From NCBI GenBank assembly GCA_013166775.1, contig JABLTJ010000002.1, forward strand, positions 128,001-192,000: DNA of 64,000 bases, in the 5' to 3' direction. The position numbers and the translations under genes are program-made. Of this stretch, positions 5,862 through 27,667 are shown piece after piece. Every line of letters starts with the position of its first letter. Positions within the stretch are counted from its first letter, which is position 1. This DNA is from Promethearchaeati archaeon. Its GTDB lineage: Archaea > Asgardarchaeota > Heimdallarchaeia > Heimdallarchaeales > Heimdallarchaeaceae. Under the pieces are notes generated by a model. It was not told where the DNA came from. It saw only the letters and a list, made by a program, of their open reading frames with translations, and ran no database searches.

Positions 5862-6362
5862 ATGAAAATGAGTACTGTCTATATTGCTTGTTCTATGATA
5901 AGATCTGTAGGAATCGATTTCTCTCTATTAGATATTTTAGAAGAGTGGATAATAAATCAGCAACTATTACCTTTTACTCCAGGAAAGATGGAAGATACAA
6001 GTCCGGATGTAATTTTCAAAAGAGATATGAAAATGTTGGAAAAATCTGATTTCATTATTGCAGACGTCAATGAACCTTCCCATGGAGTTGGGATGGAAAT
6101 CATGTATGCTTATGAACATGGAATGCCAGTTATTTGTGTACTAAACAAAGAGAACAGACCATTTTCGAGGATGGTAGATGGGAGTCCTCATGTTTACTTG
6201 ATTGAATATGAAAACAAAGAAAATCTGAAAACAAAATTAGAAAGAATCAAATTGAAAGATTTATTGATAGAATTTTGTGAAACTTGCCAGAATAGAACAA
6301 TACACTACGAGAAAGTATGTAAAAGATGTAAAAATAAAGGTAACAGCCCCAAGGCGATTTGA
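5862..6362 (+). CDS. Nucleoside 2-deoxyribosyltransferase / DNPH1(Rcl)-like N-glycosidase with C-terminal Zn ribbon
   Basis: VYIA, IFKRDMKML..SDFIIAD, PSHGVGMEIMYA motif; C-terminal CETC...CKRC. Confidence 0.8.
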   Translation: MKMSTVYIACSMIRSVGIDFSLLDILEEWIINQQLLPFTPGKMEDTSPDVIFKRDMKMLEKSDFIIADVNEPSHGVGMEIMYAYEHGMPVICVLNKENRPFSRMVDGSPHVYLIEYENKENLKTKLERIKLKDLLIEFCETCQNRTIHYEKVCKRCKNKGNSPKAI

Positions 6363-6415
6363 ACGCCTGCCTCAGGATCCAGAGTCCCGTATCCTTCCAA
6401 CTAGACTATGGGGCT
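6344..6415 (-). tRNA. tRNA-Gln(CUG), intronless, A1-U72, G73
   Basis: Folds as AGCCCCA TA GTCT AGTTGGAA GGAT A CGGGA CT-CTG-GA TCCTG AGGC AGGCG TTCAAAT CGCCT TGGGGCT G. Confidence 0.92.
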
Positions 6416-6549
6416 TTGTTTCTTATGGTGTCTGGTTTTTACCTAAATAAAATTTTTTGGTAATAACAATTAATTGAGTCCTTAATTATAGAGATAAATT
6501 CTTAAATACTTTGTATTTTTTTACTAAATGCTTATCAAAGTGGTGAAAT

Positions 6550-7128
6550 ATGCAAGAAAAGCCACTAAAAAACAGATTTATAGCAATTTTCAAGCTTCTA
6601 AGTAAAGAGTATATTCTTCTCTCGATTTGTACTTTCTTAGTTCTTTTGGCTCTTATAATAGATCTTTTTACTTCAGTAAATTATTTCTTAACAATAGTAC
6701 TTATACTCACATGTTTCTTAGTTGGAATTTTATTAAATAAAAAAATTTCAGTAATATTTGCAAGTGTAATGATTGTTATTTATTGTTCAGCTATATTTTC
6801 GTTGTTGATGGTAAATCAGGATTTATTTGATAATTCTGATCTTGCTTCGATTATGTACAGAATAGGCGGAGGAGCTTGGGGACTTTGGGGATTGTTATTA
6901 TTCCCACCTTTTATAATAATAGGTGGTTCAACTTTTCTAGGAGCATGTATTCAAGTGATTATATTTTATTCTACAACTCCAAAAGAAGAAATAGAAGAAA
7001 AACATGTAAAAAAAATATGTCCTAATTGCCTTTCAGTTAATTCAAAAGAATCAACGAATTGTAAAAAATGTGGAAAAAAATTTCAATCAGTACAGACTAA
7101 TAGTAAAAATGATTCTTTCAATTTATAG
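6550..7128 (+). CDS. Membrane protein with C-terminal zinc ribbon
   Basis: About 4 TM segments, then CPNC...CKKCG. Confidence 0.75.
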   Translation: MQEKPLKNRFIAIFKLLSKEYILLSICTFLVLLALIIDLFTSVNYFLTIVLILTCFLVGILLNKKISVIFASVMIVIYCSAIFSLLMVNQDLFDNSDLASIMYRIGGGAWGLWGLLLFPPFIIIGGSTFLGACIQVIIFYSTTPKEEIEEKHVKKICPNCLSVNSKESTNCKKCGKKFQSVQTNSKNDSFNL

Positions 7129-7141
7129 AAAAGAAAGGTAG

Positions 7142-7244
7142 TTGCCCCAAGGTGATTAATTCAAGGCTTCCCTCGAGAACACCTTTTTGAACACCTGTCT
7201 CTGGGATCAAATCCCAGCGTGATTGACCGCTACACTATGGGGCT
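7142..7244 (-). tRNA. tRNA-Gln(UUG) variant with 30-nt intron at position 58/59 (7157-7186); A1.A72 mismatch, A73
   Basis: AGCCCCA TA GTGTAGCGGTCAATCAC G CTGGG AT-TTG-AT CCCAG AGAC AGGTG TTCAA[intron]AT CACCT TGGGGCA A. A relaxed BHB (GTTC/GAAT helix, AAA bulge) restores the TTCAAAT T-loop. Confidence 0.8.
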
Positions 7245-7335
7245 GTCGATTATTTCTTTCTATTTCTCTTGATTTCCCTATTTGGTTTTAAATCCTTCTT
7301 TTTTTACCTAGTGTTAATATAACTTGGTTTCTAGA

Positions 7336-8145
7336 TTAGGACTGAACAAAGTTCCTTACTGTATTAATAAAACTATCAAACTGTTCTCTTTGAATATTAT
7401 ATCCTGTCTGCTCATAGAGAACCCATTCACCTTCCTGAAAACTATCTTTTAATGATTGAAAATACTTCTTAGGTATAACGCCATTCTCAGCTACCATTAA
7501 TAAAATTGGGACTTTTATATAAGGTAAAACTTCTCTGTATAATACACGATCTGTTCTTAATTGTCTCAGAGAAGGTTTTTGTTTTAATTGTGCAAATTGG
7601 TATTGAGCTCTAGCCCAACTTTTCTGATCTATAATGTTCCAATCAGTATTTTGCTTCGTACTCCTCTCTATAATTTCTTCCTCAGTTTTATTTCTCATTG
7701 AACTTAACCTCATACTAAAAGCGAAATAAATCATAATCTCTCTAAAGGTTAGAGATGGTTTGAAGTTAAAAGCGGGTTCTACTAAAACGATGCCTTTAAC
7801 AAGTGGTGAATATTCTTTTGCCAATAAACTAGTGATTCTTGCGCCCATCGAATGACCTAAAATCCAAGTTTTATCTAATTCAAGAGTTTTGATAAGTTCT
7901 GCAATTTCTTGCATCATTTCATAGCTATCTATTCCTTTTGAAGAAATAGAAGACAATCCATGATTCCGAAAATCGGGCATGATTACATCAAATTCTTTCT
8001 CAAACACTTGAGCTGCTCTGGTCCAACATAGACCATTGTCTGCATAGCCATGAAGTAGAATTAAAGGTGGTTTATCCCCTCCTGTTCTAGTATAATGTAA
8101 ATTCAAGCTATTGACATTAATGTAATCTGAAGTCCAGTTGTTCAT
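7336..8145 (-). CDS. Alpha/beta-fold hydrolase (catalytic His apparently replaced by Tyr)
   Basis: LLHGYAD oxyanion motif, GHSMG nucleophile elbow; C-terminal TGYNIQRE where GH is expected. Confidence 0.85.
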   Translation of the reverse strand: MNNWTSDYINVNSLNLHYTRTGGDKPPLILLHGYADNGLCWTRAAQVFEKEFDVIMPDFRNHGLSSISSKGIDSYEMMQEIAELIKTLELDKTWILGHSMGARITSLLAKEYSPLVKGIVLVEPAFNFKPSLTFREIMIYFAFSMRLSSMRNKTEEEIIERSTKQNTDWNIIDQKSWARAQYQFAQLKQKPSLRQLRTDRVLYREVLPYIKVPILLMVAENGVIPKKYFQSLKDSFQEGEWVLYEQTGYNIQREQFDSFINTVRNFVQS

Positions 8146-8266
8146 TTTAAATCCATTAGCTGTTTTTCGTAAATAAGGTATCTGAATTAAAAATGTATGT
8201 TTTCATTTGAGTAAATCTTTAATCACATAAGGTTATTCAAGTATTTATAGAATTTTTAAGAAAAAG

Positions 8267-8373
8267 TGGCAGTCCTAGGGAGATATTTTCAGGCTTTCCT
8301 CGCAAGAAACACCTTTTGAACTCCCGGTGCCAGATTCAAAGTCTGGAGTGTTTCCAGGCTACACTATAGGACT
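8267..8373 (-). tRNA. tRNA-Gln(UUG) with 31-nt intron at 58/59 (8285-8315), A1-U72, G73, encoded CCA
   Basis: AGTCCTA TA GTGT AGCCTGGAA ACAC T CCAGA CT-TTG-AA TCTGG CACC GGGAG TTCAA[intron]AT CTCCC TAGGACT G CCA; the exons total 76 nt. Confidence 0.9.
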
Positions 8374-8460
8374 GTAATGTAAGTCATTCTCTTCTAATAC
8401 GATTTTAAATTTTTCTCTTTAAACTAAAAAAAATTATGGTAAAAGAAGTAATTACTCTTT

Positions 8461-10392
8461 TCAATTACTCTTTTTTGCCCATGTATCTCTTAGTGTTATT
8501 ATTCTGTTAAAGACTAAGTTTTCTTTTGTGGAATCAACTATATCAATTACAAAGTAGCCATTTCTTTCGAATTGAAATCTTGATCCTTGTTCCTTATCCT
8601 TTAGGAATGGTTCCACATAGGAGTTCAGAATAGTTATAGCATTTGGATTAAGATAATCAGTAAACTCTTTACCTTCCTCAGTTTCCATTGGATTCTCTTT
8701 TGTATACATCCTATCATATAATCTTACTTCGGCTTCTAAGGCACTATCTGCTGATAACCAATGAATAGTTCCTTGCACCTTTCTTCCATCTGGGGATTCT
8801 CCTCCTTTACTTTCGGGATCATAGGTGCAATGGATTTCAATTATATCTCCTGTTTCTCTATCTTTAACTACATTTTCACACTTTACGAAATAAGCATATT
8901 TCAGTCTGATTTCTTTTCCTGGAGAAAGACGATAATAATCTTCGGGAGGATTTTCCATGAAATCTTCCTTTTCAATATAGAGGTTTTTTGTAAAGTTAAC
9001 TTTTCTAGTCCCCATTTCCTTATCAGAAGGGTGATTTGGTACAGTAAATTCCTCTATTTTATCATTAGGGAAATTTGTGATAACAAGTTTGATTGGATTA
9101 ATTACACTCATTACTCGTGGGCATCTTTTATCCAAATCATCTCGAATGTAGTGCTCAAAGATTGACATATCTATTAGTTTATCTCGCTTAGTGAAATTTA
9201 TTGCTAATGAGAAATTACGTATAGCTTCAGGAGTTATCCCTCGTCGTCTCATACCTGCGATTGTTAACATCAATGGATCATCCCATCCTTTAACATAACC
9301 CTCTTCAACGAGCATACGTAAACGTCTTTTACTTCCCACCATATATGTGAGATTCATTTTCGCAAACTCTATTTGTTGAGGATGGAAAATAGGATTACCA
9401 TCTTCATCGTCTAGTTGATCCAAATACCAATCATAGAGAAGTCTATGGACTTCAAATTCCAAAGTACATATTGAATGAGTTATTCCTTCTATTGAATCTT
9501 CCAAACCATGAGCCCAATCATACATTGGATAAATGCACCACTTATCACCAGTATTAGGATGATGAGCATGAAGTATTCTATACACTATAGGATCTCGCAT
9601 AAGCATGTTTGGATGAGCCATATCTATTTTTGCGCGGAGAACTTTTTCTCCATCTTTGAATTCACCATTTTTCATCCGCTCAAACAAGTCAAGATTCTCT
9701 TCAATTGATCTATTTCTGTAAGGGCTTTCTTGTCCAGGTTCTGTTATTGTTCCTCTCATTTCTCTGATTTCTTCTACACTAGAATCATCTACATACGCTA
9801 AACCTTTCTTAATCAGCTGAATAGCATAGTCATATAACTGATCGAAGTAATTGGATGCAAAAAGCAATCTGTCTTCAAAATCAACTCCTAACCAACGTAC
9901 ATCTGCAGTTATAGATTCAATGAACTCCTCTTCTTCAGTAATAGGGTTTGTGTCATCGAATCTCAGATTGAATTTCCCACCATATTCCACTGCGAAGTGA
10001 TAGTTCCTATTTATGGAATAAGCATGACCAATATGTAACCAACCATTTGGTTCAGGAGGAAAACGTGTATGAACTCGACCACCATATTTGCCTGTTTTCA
10101 TATCCTCATTGATTATTGTTCGTATGAAATCGACATCCTCTTCAGTATCTTCTTCTACTTCCTCCAATAATTCTGGATACTGCTGTTGTGCTAGTTGTTG
10201 TATCTCAGATGAGTTTAATGAATTGATGTAACTAACTTTCTTAGCTACAATTGCTTTAATGTTCTCTATATCCTTTCGCAGTTCAGGATTGGATTTAGCA
10301 ATTAATCCTATAACTGCTCCAACAACTGCTTCACCATGCTCTAAAGCATTTAGAACGGTGAACTTTTCGCACAACTTTTCTAGTGATGTCAT
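8461..10392 (-). CDS. glnS: Glutaminyl-tRNA synthetase (bacterial-type core) with archaeal GluRS-like N-terminal domain
   Basis: DFIRTIINED..TRFPPEPNGWLHIGHA, LRFDDTNP, YPMYDWAH, Gln-specific HSICTLEF, VGSKRRL (KMSKS equivalent), beta-barrel anticodon domain ending FQFERNGYF...FNRIITLRDTWAK. Confidence 0.93.
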   Translation of the reverse strand: MTSLEKLCEKFTVLNALEHGEAVVGAVIGLIAKSNPELRKDIENIKAIVAKKVSYINSLNSSEIQQLAQQQYPELLEEVEEDTEEDVDFIRTIINEDMKTGKYGGRVHTRFPPEPNGWLHIGHAYSINRNYHFAVEYGGKFNLRFDDTNPITEEEEFIESITADVRWLGVDFEDRLLFASNYFDQLYDYAIQLIKKGLAYVDDSSVEEIREMRGTITEPGQESPYRNRSIEENLDLFERMKNGEFKDGEKVLRAKIDMAHPNMLMRDPIVYRILHAHHPNTGDKWCIYPMYDWAHGLEDSIEGITHSICTLEFEVHRLLYDWYLDQLDDEDGNPIFHPQQIEFAKMNLTYMVGSKRRLRMLVEEGYVKGWDDPLMLTIAGMRRRGITPEAIRNFSLAINFTKRDKLIDMSIFEHYIRDDLDKRCPRVMSVINPIKLVITNFPNDKIEEFTVPNHPSDKEMGTRKVNFTKNLYIEKEDFMENPPEDYYRLSPGKEIRLKYAYFVKCENVVKDRETGDIIEIHCTYDPESKGGESPDGRKVQGTIHWLSADSALEAEVRLYDRMYTKENPMETEEGKEFTDYLNPNAITILNSYVEPFLKDKEQGSRFQFERNGYFVIDIVDSTKENLVFNRIITLRDTWAKKSN

Positions 10393-10466: not shown

Positions 10467-11627
10467 TTATTTCTTCTTTAAGGAAATAATAACCAAGCTA
10501 ATAAGAGATAGAAGTAAAACACCTAAAACTATTGAAGAAAATTCAGGAATAATTACTATGGAATTGAGAGGGTAAGGATCATTGTTATTAGCAGTTCCAT
10601 CAATATTATAGACTCCAGGACCTACATAGTCATCCCAATAGTTACCTTCATTTGTAGCAACATCGTACCATGTGGCATTTTGTGTGGTCAATACTGCATC
10701 ATCCTCTGCTTGTACACCTCCACCATTATTTCCTATAAAGTTATTATGATGAAGAGTACAAAAATCTACACCGGCTTCTAGATACACTCCATAAGAAGTA
10801 GTGTCTTTAATCAGGTTGAACACATAAAGTCCATTATGAGTAGATAGAATTTGGAAACCGTAGGCACCATTTTTTAGTACTGTATTATTTTCTGCAACTA
10901 GATCATTCCCATAATAATGTCCAAATCCTGCATAACTGTTGTCAGTACAATTATTGTAACGAAATGTATTAGAGTGGCTAAAATCATTTCTAATTCCCCA
11001 GGCATTTTTTTCACATTTATTATTCAAAAACAAACCATCGTTTGAGTTATTATCGATGAAAATTCCTTCATCACCATTATTCTTACAGATATTATTTTCT
11101 ACCCACAATACTGGACACTTATCCAATCTAATTCCTGTGTGGAAATTATTAATGCAATCACAATTTATTATTGTGGCTCCATTGCATCTAATAAGATAAA
11201 TACCCACACCATCCCCACCAAGAGTATTAACACAAGTGCAATTATCAATTGTAACTAAACTGGGATAAGCATCAATAATCTTTATACATACTTCTGCAGC
11301 AGTTATCCAACAATCACGGATAATAAACGAAACATTAAAACCTGTACTACCACCACTTGCATCGATTAGAATTCCTATAAGACTACTAGTAGTTATGTTA
11401 TAGTTTTCTATTATGTATGGATCACCAGGTATTCCGTTGCCAGGAAATGAACTGAATCCAGCATCAGTTGTTATTACAATTGGATCATGGTCAATTAAAT
11501 CATTCAATATAATAGGATCAGATATACTTTGATTCTTCGCGTCTGAAGAGTATGATGTAATGGTTAGTAACAGCAAAACCAAAACTACCCAAAATAACCA
11601 TTTAAGTTTGTTAATCTTTGTTTTCAT
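10467..11627 (-). CDS. Secreted right-handed beta-helix (NosD/CASH) surface protein with PEF-CTERM-like anchor
   Basis: Signal peptide, GxGxxxDPYIIEN motif, parallel beta-helix repeats, GNYWDDY; ends IPEF + TM + KKK. Confidence 0.85.
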   Translation of the reverse strand: MKTKINKLKWLFWVVLVLLLLTITSYSSDAKNQSISDPIILNDLIDHDPIVITTDAGFSSFPGNGIPGDPYIIENYNITTSSLIGILIDASGGSTGFNVSFIIRDCWITAAEVCIKIIDAYPSLVTIDNCTCVNTLGGDGVGIYLIRCNGATIINCDCINNFHTGIRLDKCPVLWVENNICKNNGDEGIFIDNNSNDGLFLNNKCEKNAWGIRNDFSHSNTFRYNNCTDNSYAGFGHYYGNDLVAENNTVLKNGAYGFQILSTHNGLYVFNLIKDTTSYGVYLEAGVDFCTLHHNNFIGNNGGGVQAEDDAVLTTQNATWYDVATNEGNYWDDYVGPGVYNIDGTANNNDPYPLNSIVIIPEFSSIVLGVLLLSLISLVIISLKKK

Positions 11628-11984: not shown

Positions 11985-12998
11985 TCAAAGAATTAAATCC
12001 AGAAAGTTGAATCTGTTATTCATACCTATAAACACTATTAGAGCACTGAGAACCACAAAAGTTAATACTATTTGGATTATATATAACCTACTAATTTTCT
12101 TATATTGTCTAGTAGAAAATGTACCTCCTTTTACAAAAGATTGTGAGGTCCAGAAGATCATTGCACACGAAGCATAGATTGCTATTACATTCAACACTAG
12201 GAGAATCAAAGACCCAATCGCACCTTCTATTGTAGCCTTACTAGCTAATAAAACACCCACATTAGCTGCTGGTGGGCACAAAGATGCAGCAACAGCTACA
12301 CCCACAATTGCTGTACTTTCTCCGCGCATTATAAAAATTCCAGCTGCTAGTCCACTTGCTATTGCAAAGATTATATCACCATAATTTGGTACAGTTCTTA
12401 TTGTAACTTGATTACTGTTTAAGATTAAATCAGGATTGGAATAATTGTAAATCAAACCAACAATTAACCCAAAAAGAATTATGATGATTAATCCTGTTAC
12501 TTCAGCAAACATAGCTTTTCTAGAATAGATATTCTTTGGAGTCATTGTACCAATAACTGTCAGAGCTATTGGATTTAAGAGTGGAGCAATAATCATACTA
12601 GCGATCACAATAATTACGTTATCATAAATTAATCCAAAAGATGCTAATGCTCCTGCTAAGATAATTAGACCAATAAATGTAGGATTAATCATACCTAATC
12701 CTTTGATATTTGATATAATCTCATCAATACCTATTCCTCTACCTTTATGAGCAAATTCCTTAATTTTAGATCTAATTGCAAATGAAACTGGTGTTACAGT
12801 TATACTTCCAAAAACTGTTCCTACACCAACTCCTTTTAATTCCTCTAAAAGAGTTGAAGTATGATGATTTTCTATAACTGTTTCCAATGTAGCTGTATCT
12901 TCAAAAACTGAAAGGTTGAACGATATGTTTAATTTCTCTTCAAGTTCTCTAACAATTTCCAGCTTTTCAGATGGTATGATTATTTTTACCTCTTTCAT
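11985..12998 (-). CDS. DUF389/TIGR00341-family membrane protein with N-terminal PII-like domain
   Basis: IASMIIAPLLNP and VGVAVAASLCPP motifs; start ATG 12998 after GAGGT. Confidence 0.85.
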   Translation of the reverse strand: MKEVKIIIPSEKLEIVRELEEKLNISFNLSVFEDTATLETVIENHHTSTLLEELKGVGVGTVFGSITVTPVSFAIRSKIKEFAHKGRGIGIDEIISNIKGLGMINPTFIGLIILAGALASFGLIYDNVIIVIASMIIAPLLNPIALTVIGTMTPKNIYSRKAMFAEVTGLIIIILFGLIVGLIYNYSNPDLILNSNQVTIRTVPNYGDIIFAIASGLAAGIFIMRGESTAIVGVAVAASLCPPAANVGVLLASKATIEGAIGSLILLVLNVIAIYASCAMIFWTSQSFVKGGTFSTRQYKKISRLYIIQIVLTFVVLSALIVFIGMNNRFNFLDLIL

Positions 12999-13208
12999 GG
13001 TAAAACCTCTATTGTCTGATATTGATATTATTAATGATGAACCTTTAAAAGTCTTGCACAAATAAACGGTGCGAAAAATAAACAAGAAGCCTTAAAATTT
13101 AGGAATTATGATGTTAGAGTGGGATATTAAAACATTTCTTTCAAACATGATTAATTCCATTACTGTGAAAAATATGAAACGAGAAATGAGATAAAATGTA
13201 GTCTTCAA

Positions 13209-26218: not shown

Positions 26219-27667
26219 ATGAGACCTAATATCAGTATTCTTGAAGATGATATCAAAGAAAAAGTCTTTGTTGAAGCAATGGAGATACTTGAAGAGATTG
26301 GATTCTTCGTAGAGAATCAAGAGGCTCTAGAGATTCTCCAAGAAGCAGGATTAAATGTTGATGTTGAAAAGAGGAGAGTTAAACTTCCTCCAGATTTAGT
26401 TAAGAAATCTTTACAATCCGCTCCATCGTCAATCACTCTTTTTGATAGAGAGGGTAAGGAAGTTACCAAGCTAGAAGGAGATAATATTTGTTTTGATCCA
26501 GGTTCAGCAGCGTTGAATGTTTTAGATCCAGAGACTAAGAAAATAAGAACAGCAGTAACCAAGGATTTTGTAGATTTTACAAAAGTAGTGGAACAACTAG
26601 AACATATTCAAGCTCAGAGTACTGCAATTATTTGTTCGGATGTTCCTGAAGAGGTGGGTGATAGATACCGTCTCTATCTTGCATTGATTTATTCCAAAAA
26701 ACCTATTGTTACTGGGACTTTTGCTAAAGAATCATTTGAAATTATGAAAGACATGCTTATTGCTGTCCGAGGAGATAAAAAGGAGTTAAGAAACAAACCT
26801 CTTGCAATTTTTGATGCATGTCCATCACCACCATTAAAATGGAGTGATTTAACTTGCCAAAGCATAATTGATTGTGCGAAATATGGAATACCTTCAGAAT
26901 TCGTATCAATGCCTATGACAGGTGCGAATGCTCCCGTAACATTACTAGGAGCAATTGTTCAACATGCAGCTGAGACTTTAGCCGGCTTAGTAATAACCCA
27001 ACTTGTATCCCCTGGAACTCCGGTCATCTGGGGAGGATCTCCCGCAGCTTTTGATATGAGAAAAGGGACTACTCCCATGGGATCAATAGATACTATGATG
27101 ATTGATTTGGGTTATGCTGAAATTGGCAAATATCTCAATCTTCCAACACATGCGTATCTTGGAATGTCAGATGCAAAAATACTAGACGCACAATCTGGTC
27201 TTGAATCAGGAATGGGAACCTTACTCGCAGGAATTAAAGGTATAAACATGATTTCAGGTGCAGGCATGATTGATTTTGAAACCACACAAAGCATCCAAAA
27301 AGTAATTATAGACAATGAAATTTGTGGAATGACTTACAAATTCATCAAAGGGATTATTCAACGCGATGAACCAATAGCAAAAAATCTGTTAATAGATTTA
27401 GAAGAAAGAACACATCTACTATCTCATGATCATACTCTAAAATGGTTTAGAGAAGAACAATATATTCCAAGTCAAGTGATAGATAGAGCTACAACTGAAG
27501 AATGGATAAATAAAGGAAGGAAAACAATAGGAGATAGAGCAAATGAACAAGTTAAGAAATTTCTTGATAAGTATCCAGGGGTTACACTTGACAAAGATAT
27601 TCTATCTGATATAAGTGAGATCATGAAATACAAAGGCAAAGATTTTAGAGAGAATTTAGATATATGA
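26219..27667 (+). CDS. Trimethylamine methyltransferase (MttB/MtgB) family, non-pyrrolysine
   Basis: SPPLKW, APVTLLGAIVQHAAETLAG, PGTPVIWGG, DMRKG, SDAKILDAQSGLE; no in-frame TAG. Confidence 0.92.
   Translation: MRPNISILEDDIKEKVFVEAMEILEEIGFFVENQEALEILQEAGLNVDVEKRRVKLPPDLVKKSLQSAPSSITLFDREGKEVTKLEGDNICFDPGSAALNVLDPETKKIRTAVTKDFVDFTKVVEQLEHIQAQSTAIICSDVPEEVGDRYRLYLALIYSKKPIVTGTFAKESFEIMKDMLIAVRGDKKELRNKPLAIFDACPSPPLKWSDLTCQSIIDCAKYGIPSEFVSMPMTGANAPVTLLGAIVQHAAETLAGLVITQLVSPGTPVIWGGSPAAFDMRKGTTPMGSIDTMMIDLGYAEIGKYLNLPTHAYLGMSDAKILDAQSGLESGMGTLLAGIKGINMISGAGMIDFETTQSIQKVIIDNEICGMTYKFIKGIIQRDEPIAKNLLIDLEERTHLLSHDHTLKWFREEQYIPSQVIDRATTEEWINKGRKTIGDRANEQVKKFLDKYPGVTLDKDILSDISEIMKYKGKDFRENLDI

Follow-up and report, generated by a model that had tools for sequence, protein, structure and literature searches.

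A bacterial-type glutaminyl-tRNA synthetase with an archaeal GluRS N-terminal domain, linked to tRNA-Gln genes in Heimdallarchaeia

How could a glutaminyl-tRNA synthetase (GlnRS) come to reside in an archaeon? According to a 2022 review, all archaea are without GlnRS, an absence ascribed to the mismatch between archaeal tRNA-Gln, with A1:U72 and A73, and the bacterial and eukaryotic enzymes (PMC9499178). The question is raised by a 64,000-nt stretch of DNA, hereafter the window (positions 128,001 to 192,000 of contig JABLTJ010000002.1, assembly GCA_013166775.1), from a Promethearchaeati archaeon of the family Heimdallarchaeaceae, in which a GlnRS gene is accompanied by three tRNA-Gln genes, here called tQ1, tQ2 and tQ3 (Table 1). 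The enzyme is probably a resident bacterial-type GlnRS that carries the N-terminal domain of a Heimdallarchaeial glutamyl-tRNA synthetase (GluRS), that offers a direct route to Gln-tRNA(Gln) beside the indirect, transamidation route of GluRS and GatDE, and that goes back to one transfer followed by a fusion.

Several lines of evidence identify the gene product, which, judged from its sequence, is a class I synthetase of bacterial type, intact and specific for glutamine. First, the 643-aa open reading frame (ORF) and the motifs quoted from it in an earlier note on this DNA are found as described in the translation, which carries the class I signatures LHIGHA (HIGH) and VGSKR (KMSKS-like) and matches the three GlnRS/GluRS domains of Pfam (tRNA-synt_1c, tRNA-synt_1c_C and tRNA-synt_1c_C2). 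Second, the glnS equivalog model TIGR00440 matches residues 107-640 with 700.1 bits against a cut-off of 425.8, and the archaeal GluRS model gltX_arch, at 386.9 bits, falls just under its cut-off of 401.75. Third, in an alignment to Escherichia coli GlnRS (1O0B), the residues for the glutamine amide are identical to E. coli Arg30, Tyr211, Cys229 and Gln255; the wedge residue Leu136 is replaced by Ile and Asp235 by Val. At the Leu136 position, part of another Heimdall family (f5, loci L049-L052) has Ser (RGTSE or RGTSD), and Leu, Ile or Val stands there in the other enzymes of f5 and in those of f1 and f7; f1 is the family of the window genome, and f1-f7, like the g and L labels used below for genera and loci, are working names.

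The highest-scoring of the family models calls for a comment. PRK14703, which describes a Deinococcus-type fusion of GlnRS with YqeY, reaches 837 bits and covers only profile positions 8-560 of 769. Such a fusion was rejected, as the match stops at profile position 560 and the protein itself at residue 643. The name that NCBI gives to homologues, 'glutamine--tRNA ligase/YqeY domain fusion protein', reflects the model matched and not the architecture.

The core of the enzyme follows the bacterial type. The structures of the Pseudomonas aeruginosa (5BNZ) and E. coli (1O0B) enzymes align from residues 83-86, at the DFIRTIINED motif, to residues 639-641, which agrees with the earlier description of an E. 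coli-type core from that motif onward. Scored against structures, the window GlnRS gives 653-668 bits with bacterial GlnRS, 402 with the human enzyme, 393 with that of yeast and 222 with archaeal GluRS. Insertions and deletions point the same way in an alignment of 83 sequences, which includes 45 bacterial GlnRS, 14 eukaryote-type GlnRS (two members are named, a plant and Amoebidium) and 8 Asgard GluRS rows: at least 70% of the bacterial rows, and likewise of each Heimdall group, carry three insertions (RGTITEPG at residues 212-219, a loop spanning 532-534, and residue 173) that at least 70% of the eukaryote-type GlnRS and Asgard GluRS rows lack. The first of them, RGTxTxPG, is the loop that unpairs the acceptor stem (E. 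coli 132-141). This unpairing loop and the loop that recognizes G36 are both present in the window GlnRS; they belong to E. coli GlnRS and not to archaeal GluRS (PMC2978374). Together with the TIGR00440 match, the structure scores and indels support the proposal of a true bacterial-type GlnRS in an Asgard genome, here one of the Heimdallarchaeaceae.

Identities over the core are 63% to a Chloroflexota GlnRS, 59% to the GlnRS of a second Heimdall family, 46% to plant GlnRS and 31% to the GluRS of the same genome. The plant enzyme is itself 52% identical to a bacterial enzyme, against the 46% that it shares with the window core, and the eukaryotic indel states are absent from the latter, so that a special affinity to eukaryotic GlnRS does not hold up. 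Assignment to the eukaryotic class was rejected on the bacterial indel states, on the lack of a match to the Pfam domains tRNA_synt_1c_R1 and R2 and on the tree, in which the eukaryote-type enzymes form a separate clade (100/100). We also discarded, as a sign of shared origin, an insertion at residues 330-334 that is common to the Heimdall enzymes of f5 and of f1/f7: the residues inserted are not related to each other, and insertions at this site are also seen in several bacteria.

The N-terminal domain has a different source: as alignments and trees indicate, it comes from a Heimdallarchaeial GluRS and has been joined to the bacterial-type core. A gapless alignment pairs residues 1-74 with the identically numbered residues of the GluRS of the same genome (BLASTP E 9e-8). 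A profile built from 13 GlnRS N-domains matches the N-termini of all 21 Asgard GluRS frames tested (best E 4e-24), with 11.5-77 bits and at least 30 bits in 20 of the 21, the best matches being GluRS of family f5 (71-77 bits); the alignment of GlnRS and GluRS N-domains runs over about 75 columns without a gap. What had been noticed as a resemblance of the first ~80 aa to archaeal GluRS is, on these BLASTP and profile results, homology. The acidic linker EEVEEDTEED, also noticed earlier, is present in the translation, and its length varies among the homologues.

A Pfam search of residues 1-100 gave no match. In Methanothermobacter thermautotrophicus GluRS, residues 1-85 have been described as a disordered 'YQEY domain' (PMC2978374). 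An AlphaFold 2 model of the window N-domain is helical, with a mean predicted local distance difference test (pLDDT) score of 85. Foldseek, run with this model against the PDB, found no match. In a VIA-align comparison, three YqeY proteins (8XJG, Z 5.8, root-mean-square deviation (rmsd) 1.8 over 46 residues; 1NG6, Z 5.4; 8XJE, Z 5.3) and the N-terminal domain (NTD) of yeast Gln4 (3TL4, Z 5.3, residues 1-63 against 119-184) were among the top 25 and had the lowest rmsd, at Z values that lie within chance for helical models.

Separate trees of the two parts tell different histories. In the N-domain tree, which has 79 columns and low power, the GlnRS N-domains group with those of f5 GluRS (94/82), this group is next joined by the N-domains of f1 and f3 GluRS (92/81), and the whole is nested within the diversity of Asgard GluRS N-domains. 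The cores of GluRS, by contrast, form a separate clade far from GlnRS (Shimodaira-Hasegawa-like approximate likelihood ratio test 100, in a quick tree without bootstrap). This discordance supports a fusion that took place inside the Heimdallarchaeia, and with it the chimeric enzyme that the earlier note had proposed stands.

GlnRS homologues are found in 41 of 399 Asgard genomes, closed genomes included, all in one class and in three of 33 families: f1, f7 and part of f5. From the names of homologues and a remark in a preprint (bioRxiv 10.1101/2024.07.04.601786), these are probably the Heimdallarchaeaceae, Kariarchaeaceae and Hodarchaeales, near the eukaryotic stem. The N-domain is carried by the enzymes of f1 and f7; that of f5 is without it and starts at the equivalent of residue 89, and we did not find the domain at any of 78 bacterial loci, GlnRS as such being spread over many bacterial phyla.

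The association with tRNA-Gln genes is equally recurrent. tRNA-Gln genes adjoin GlnRS in 17 of the 20 loci examined, and the linkage, claimed earlier from the window alone, is kept in three Heimdall families. In f5, a CUG and UUG pair lies on the strand opposite to GlnRS, just past its 3' end, except in one closed genome, where the pair is 117 kb away; f7 has a single UUG gene after GlnRS; and in the window genus a UUG gene follows about 90 nt after GlnRS, with a CUG gene a few kilobases beyond. Across the families the linked genes have A1:U72 and archaeal-type introns, and CCA is often encoded.

In the window, the three tRNA-Gln genes are real and on the same strand as GlnRS, as had been claimed; the further claim that they lie directly downstream needs amending, since they are not contiguous and two other ORFs intervene. 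The first, tQ1, starts 88 nt past the stop codon of GlnRS. Only tQ3 (59.8 bits with Rfam, 85.7 bits with the covariance model R1) was reported when ARAGORN and Rfam were run on the window. Both programs missed tQ1 and tQ2 because each has an intron of about 30 nt in its T loop; once the insert is excised (31 nt at position 58/59 in tQ1, 30 nt in tQ2), ARAGORN calls tRNA-Gln(ttg) for both, and the covariance model matches the 5' part of tQ1. Orthologues of tQ1 in sister genomes are intron-free at L040-L042 and have the same intron at L039 and L043, so the insert behaves as an intron. Over the whole 3.85-Mb genome, ARAGORN lists 30 tRNA genes and Rfam 48, and tQ1 and tQ2 are in neither list; standard tools thus undercount tRNAs in this lineage.

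Elsewhere in this genome, a classical, unlinked A73 tRNA-Gln gene with a canonical intron lies on contig C64. BLAST and a hand-written cloverleaf scan detected no further tRNA-Gln gene in the assembly, which is 89% complete, so that its tRNA counts are lower limits. Among CUG isoacceptors, tQ3 alone was found. A 'tRNA-Stop(tta)' that ARAGORN places on contig C45 is spurious, as it needs an 'intron' of 561 nt.

Sister genomes have a third tRNA-like gene between their UUG and CUG tRNA-Gln genes (L039:10105-10179, L040:7093-7167, L043:7162-7236, L181 and L185), at the site taken by tQ2 in the window. It has a normal acceptor stem (A1:U72, A73, CCA) and an 8-nt anticodon loop, GUUUAGGC or GUUUUGGC, and ARAGORN gives it no name; possibly it is a tRNA-Gln copy in decay, or it serves some unusual decoding. 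Among the weaker matches to the tRNA-Gln model, ARAGORN called tRNA-Pyl(CUA) in two f5 genomes (L224, G071:C14; L225, G074:C11).

In style the linked tRNAs are archaeal and not imported: they have A1:U72 and introns of archaeal type, and tQ1 encodes CCA. The idea of a foreign set belonging to the enzyme thus fails; only the G73 of tQ1 and tQ3 is bacterial-like. The discriminator of tRNA-Gln is A73 in archaea, G73 in bacteria and U73 in eukaryotes (PMC9499178). The bacterial pattern of U1:A72 with G73 is absent from the window, tQ1 and tQ3 combining G73 with A1:U72; the archaeal A73 rule is broken in these two genes and kept in tQ2 and in the unlinked gene on C64. Among the related genomes, f3, f6, f7 and the genera g2, g4 and g5 of f1 have A73, which is the sole discriminator seen in f7 and in these f1 genera. 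In f5, the tRNA-Gln genes near GlnRS have G73 in 12 of the 12 GlnRS-bearing genomes, both members of the pair being read in about half of them; unlinked A73 genes were also seen in two f5 genomes, and the three GlnRS-less f5 genomes examined have A73 only. Within the window genus, the UUG gene has A73 except for tQ1 of the window; of the CUG genes, those of five genomes have G73 and those of three A73.

These patterns suggest how the barrier may have been crossed. In the mechanism that we propose, the cell would have two routes to Gln-tRNA(Gln), and GlnRS would charge the neighbouring archaeal-style tRNA-Gln directly. A bacterial GlnRS would expect a weak 1:72 pair and G73; an archaeal tRNA-Gln would offer the weak pair, as A1:U72, but normally A73. 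In the E. coli complex, GlnRS opens the first base pair and uses G73 to fold back the 3' end. The fit could then have been reached in two ways: in f1 and f7, whose tRNA-Gln mostly keeps A73, through the appended domain acting as a tRNA-binding helper, and in f5, whose GlnRS is without the domain, through the G73 tRNA-Gln genes beside it. The G73 of tQ1 and tQ3 in this genome would be a secondary appearance. As to history, one bacterial-type gene would have been transferred into the ancestor of these families, and the domain fused to it in one branch. We regard it as unlikely that the two routes form separate circuits in one cell, with GlnRS serving the G73 tRNAs and GluRS/GatDE the A73 tRNAs, an arrangement that would also be compatible with a Heimdall donor of bacterial GlnRS, taken up below.

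Several observations weigh against the proposal of a transferred, then fused enzyme that works beside transamidation. That the enzyme charges glutamine, uses the linked tRNAs and binds tRNA with the help of its N-domain is deduced from the sequences. The assignment of the N-domain to the YqeY fold is weak, at Z 5.3-5.8 on a predicted model and with nothing from Foldseek. One of the three tRNAs, tQ2, is aberrant in its A1/A72 mismatch and may be decaying. G73, combined with A1:U72, also occurs in genera g8, g10 and g11 of f4, a family in which GlnRS was found in 0 of 12 genomes, so G73 is not simply a consequence of having GlnRS; we therefore rejected it as a general GlnRS marker and keep the association only within f5. 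The f4 loci with G73 tRNA-Gln (L199, L200, L209, L210 and L213-L216) show no obvious partner enzyme. Finally, in the careful tree of the cores, the Heimdall clade lies beside all sampled bacteria and not inside them (71/25; 70% of bootstrap trees), and an approximately unbiased (AU) test does not reject the bacteria as one clade (p-AU 0.776).

That tree was rooted with eukaryote-type GlnRS as outgroup, from which the bacterial-type cluster is separated with 100/100. All Heimdall GlnRS form one clade within the cluster (90/84), and a single origin of the Heimdall enzymes is likely on this grouping. The basal branches measure 0.02-0.09. Rooting with archaeal GluRS was dropped: the outgroup branch has about 1.9 changes per site and the quick search was poor, a constrained tree being 30.9 log-likelihood units better than the quick-search tree. 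This rooting is unreliable, and we therefore relied on the indels and the eukaryote-type outgroup. One quick tree placed Chloroflexota as sister to f1 and f7 (97), a grouping that the careful search did not recover, and no donor phylum is named here.

Direction is therefore best argued from distribution and parsimony, and not from topology. GlnRS occurs in many bacterial phyla against three Asgard families, and the pattern of the N-domain takes one gain against two losses, which makes acquisition from Bacteria the more economical course. The acquisition by an Asgard archaeon that the earlier note had asserted is accordingly likely on these grounds; as a result demonstrated by trees (71/25, p-AU 0.776) it does not stand.

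On the classical view, GlnRS passed from eukaryotes to Bacteria. The domain might alternatively have been retained: a GluRS already bearing the N-domain would have given rise to bacterial-type GlnRS within Heimdallarchaeia, or by way of them, f5 and Bacteria would have lost the domain, and Bacteria would have been the recipients of GlnRS. The single Heimdall clade outside all sampled bacteria would fit such a course, as would the AU tests, which, besides not rejecting the bacteria as one clade, do not reject Heimdall next to the outgroup in the GluRS-rooted set (p 0.757), and the GlnRS-bearing families are probably close to the eukaryotic stem. Yet simple retention does not predict that the GlnRS N-domains should be nested among those of Heimdall GluRS, next to f5, while the cores are far apart; it requires two losses, in f5 GlnRS and at the 78 bacterial loci, in place of one gain; it sets three of 33 Asgard families against many bacterial phyla; and the basal branches on which it leans are short and poorly supported. 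We hold it to be rather unlikely. Stated for the donor only, the idea that bacterial GlnRS took shape in the archaeal lineage close to the eukaryotic stem and moved into Bacteria from a donor whose nearest surviving kin are the Heimdall enzymes seems to us improbable.

A second alternative concerns function: GlnRS may have taken over, or be taking over, all glutaminylation in f1, with GatDE a relic or employed otherwise. The divergence of GatE would suit it, as the f1 proteins score 375-410 bits on the archaeal GatE model against 533-649 bits for full-length copies in the other families of the class, and so would the fact that the sole CUG isoacceptor found is the GlnRS-linked G73 gene. What speaks against a replacement is that the indirect route looks complete. 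The same genome encodes a GluRS (446 bits) and intact, adjacent GatE and GatD, both above curated cut-offs; GatE is present in 29 of the 30 f1 genomes and, class-wide, in 80 of 83; the classical A73 tRNA-Gln with its canonical intron is kept; and the genome is 89% complete, so that the lone CUG gene is a minimal count. Moreover, A1:U72 is recognized by GatDE (PMC2943598), and all of the tRNAs except tQ2 keep this pair, so both routes may act on them. Replacement in f1 is thus quite unlikely in our estimate, and a check for gatD, gatE and gltX overturns the earlier suggestion that the direct route is replacing transamidation, since GluRS, GatE with GatD and an A73 tRNA-Gln are all present. As a separate observation, the class has two types of GatE, a canonical one of 533-649 bits and a divergent one of about 330-440 bits: f1 has the divergent type only, f7 both, f5 either or both, and one f2 genome both. 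The GatDE locus of the window genome is G000:C76:100333-103594 (L004, L005).

The notion of a bacterial contig or a chimeric misassembly in an archaeal bin, which the 63% core identity to Chloroflexota GlnRS prompts and for which we found nothing else, can be set aside with near certainty: the contig is 217,890 bp long, the GC content of the gene and that at its third codon positions (GC3) are host-like (GC3 25.6%, the GluRS of this genome having 26.7%), the core shares one reading frame with an archaeal domain and has intron-bearing tRNAs of archaeal kind as flanking genes, and numerous independent assemblies, among which are four single-contig genomes, repeat this architecture and synteny. 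By its host composition and its synteny, conserved across three families, the GlnRS gene is a resident, old host gene.

With artefact set aside, the barrier held to exclude GlnRS from archaea has been crossed in these Heimdall genomes, and the two ways suggested above are a helper domain taken from the resident GluRS, or tRNA-Gln with G73. Since the two routes exist side by side, the passage from transamidation to direct charging could be studied in a living intermediate, in the archaea closest to eukaryotes. The components are small and expressible, so that the proposal can be tested step by step in vitro. New here are the domain-less f5 GlnRS with its G73 pair, the G73 counter-example of f4, the T-loop introns and the N-domain tree, as well as the recognition that tree topology leaves the direction of transfer between Bacteria and Heimdallarchaeia unsettled.

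Table 1. Features of the GlnRS locus, in window coordinates
Feature	Position	Strand	Basis or remark
GlnRS gene, 643 aa (P0001)	8461..10392	-	ORF; glnS TIGR00440; Pfam domains
N-terminal helical domain (residues 1-78)	10159..10392	-	Homologous to the 'YqeY' domain at the N terminus of archaeal GluRS
Acidic linker (residues 79-87, EEVEEDTEED region)	10132..10158	-	Sequence; model pLDDT <50 from residue 82
Bacterial-type GlnRS core (residues 88-643), stop codon included	8461..10131	-	Alignments to 5BNZ and 1O0B; indels
tQ1, tRNA-Gln(UUG), A1:U72, G73, CCA encoded	8267..8373	-	T-loop intron of ~31 nt, about 8284..8315
tQ2, tRNA-Gln(UUG)-like, A1/A72 mismatch, A73, CCA not encoded	7142..7244	-	T-loop intron of ~30 nt, about 7156..7185
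tQ3, tRNA-Gln(CUG), A1:U72, G73, no intron, CCA not encoded	6344..6415	-	ARAGORN; Rfam; covariance model R1
Alpha/beta-hydrolase gene	7336..8145	-	Between tQ1 and tQ2; Pfam Abhydrolase_1, 75.5 bits
Membrane/zinc-ribbon ORF	6550..7128	+	Between tQ2 and tQ3
NosD-like right-handed beta-helix protein, terminal hydrophobic segments	10467-11627	-	Upstream of GlnRS
DUF389 membrane protein	11985-13085	-	Upstream of GlnRS

The alpha/beta-hydrolase gene (Table 1) is probably just a neighbour, outside the GlnRS/tRNA system; it is missing from the equivalent site at L040-L043, where the tRNAs are closer together. Genes of the cox group are absent beside the window GlnRS; for Hodarchaeales and Kariarchaeaceae, by contrast, GlnRS beside cox genes receives a passing mention (bioRxiv 10.1101/2024.07.04.601786). 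Beyond that mention, the searchable literature yielded no account of the fusion, of the linkage to tRNA genes or of G73 genes.

Farther along the window, the Rfam family PYLIS_3 matches positions 27164-27263 with 47.8 bits, inside a 482-aa ORF at 26219-27667 on the plus strand. A pyrrolysine site was rejected there, as the ORF has no in-frame TAG; the match reflects similarity of coding sequence instead. Going by the name of the Rfam family (mttB pyrrolysine insertion element), the ORF may be MttB-like.

Compared with known systems, the window enzyme is closest to bacterial GlnRS (E. coli GlnS, 1GTR, 1QTQ and 1O0B; P. aeruginosa, 5BNZ), with which its core is collinear from about residue 88 and shares motifs, loops and indels. 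It differs from them in its 87 extra N-terminal residues of archaeal GluRS origin, in the changes of Leu136 to Ile and of Asp235 to Val, in having an archaeon as host and in meeting tRNA-Gln with A1:U72 in place of U1:A72. With the non-discriminating archaeal GluRS (M. thermautotrophicus, 3AII; PMC2978374) it shares a homologous N-domain, 3AII aligning from residue 2, and the same order of N-domain, Rossmann fold and beta-barrel anticodon-binding domains; the cores, in contrast, are 31-35% identical, and GluRS is without the unpairing and G36-recognition loops.

Two further enzymes combine a GlnRS core with an added domain. Deinococcus radiodurans GlnRS (2HZ7) likewise has an extension appended to a bacterial-type core, there of the YqeY class, a YqeY paralogue related to the C terminus of GatB (PMC1865053). 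That extension is C-terminal and has 215 residues, whereas the domain of the window enzyme is N-terminal, derived from archaeal GluRS and about 80 residues long. The Deinococcus extension reportedly raises the affinity for tRNA-Gln. Yeast Gln4 similarly carries an N-terminal helical domain, there of the GatB/YqeY kind, which binds tRNA (3TL4; PMC3333875) and whose fold matches that of the window domain weakly (Z 5.3). The eukaryotic NTD is larger, with about 200 residues in two subdomains, and the core behind it is 42-46% identical to the window core and has other indel states. By analogy with the YqeY-class domain of Deinococcus and the NTD of yeast, the N-domain of the Heimdall enzyme would be a tRNA-binding helper, here taken from the GluRS of its own lineage.

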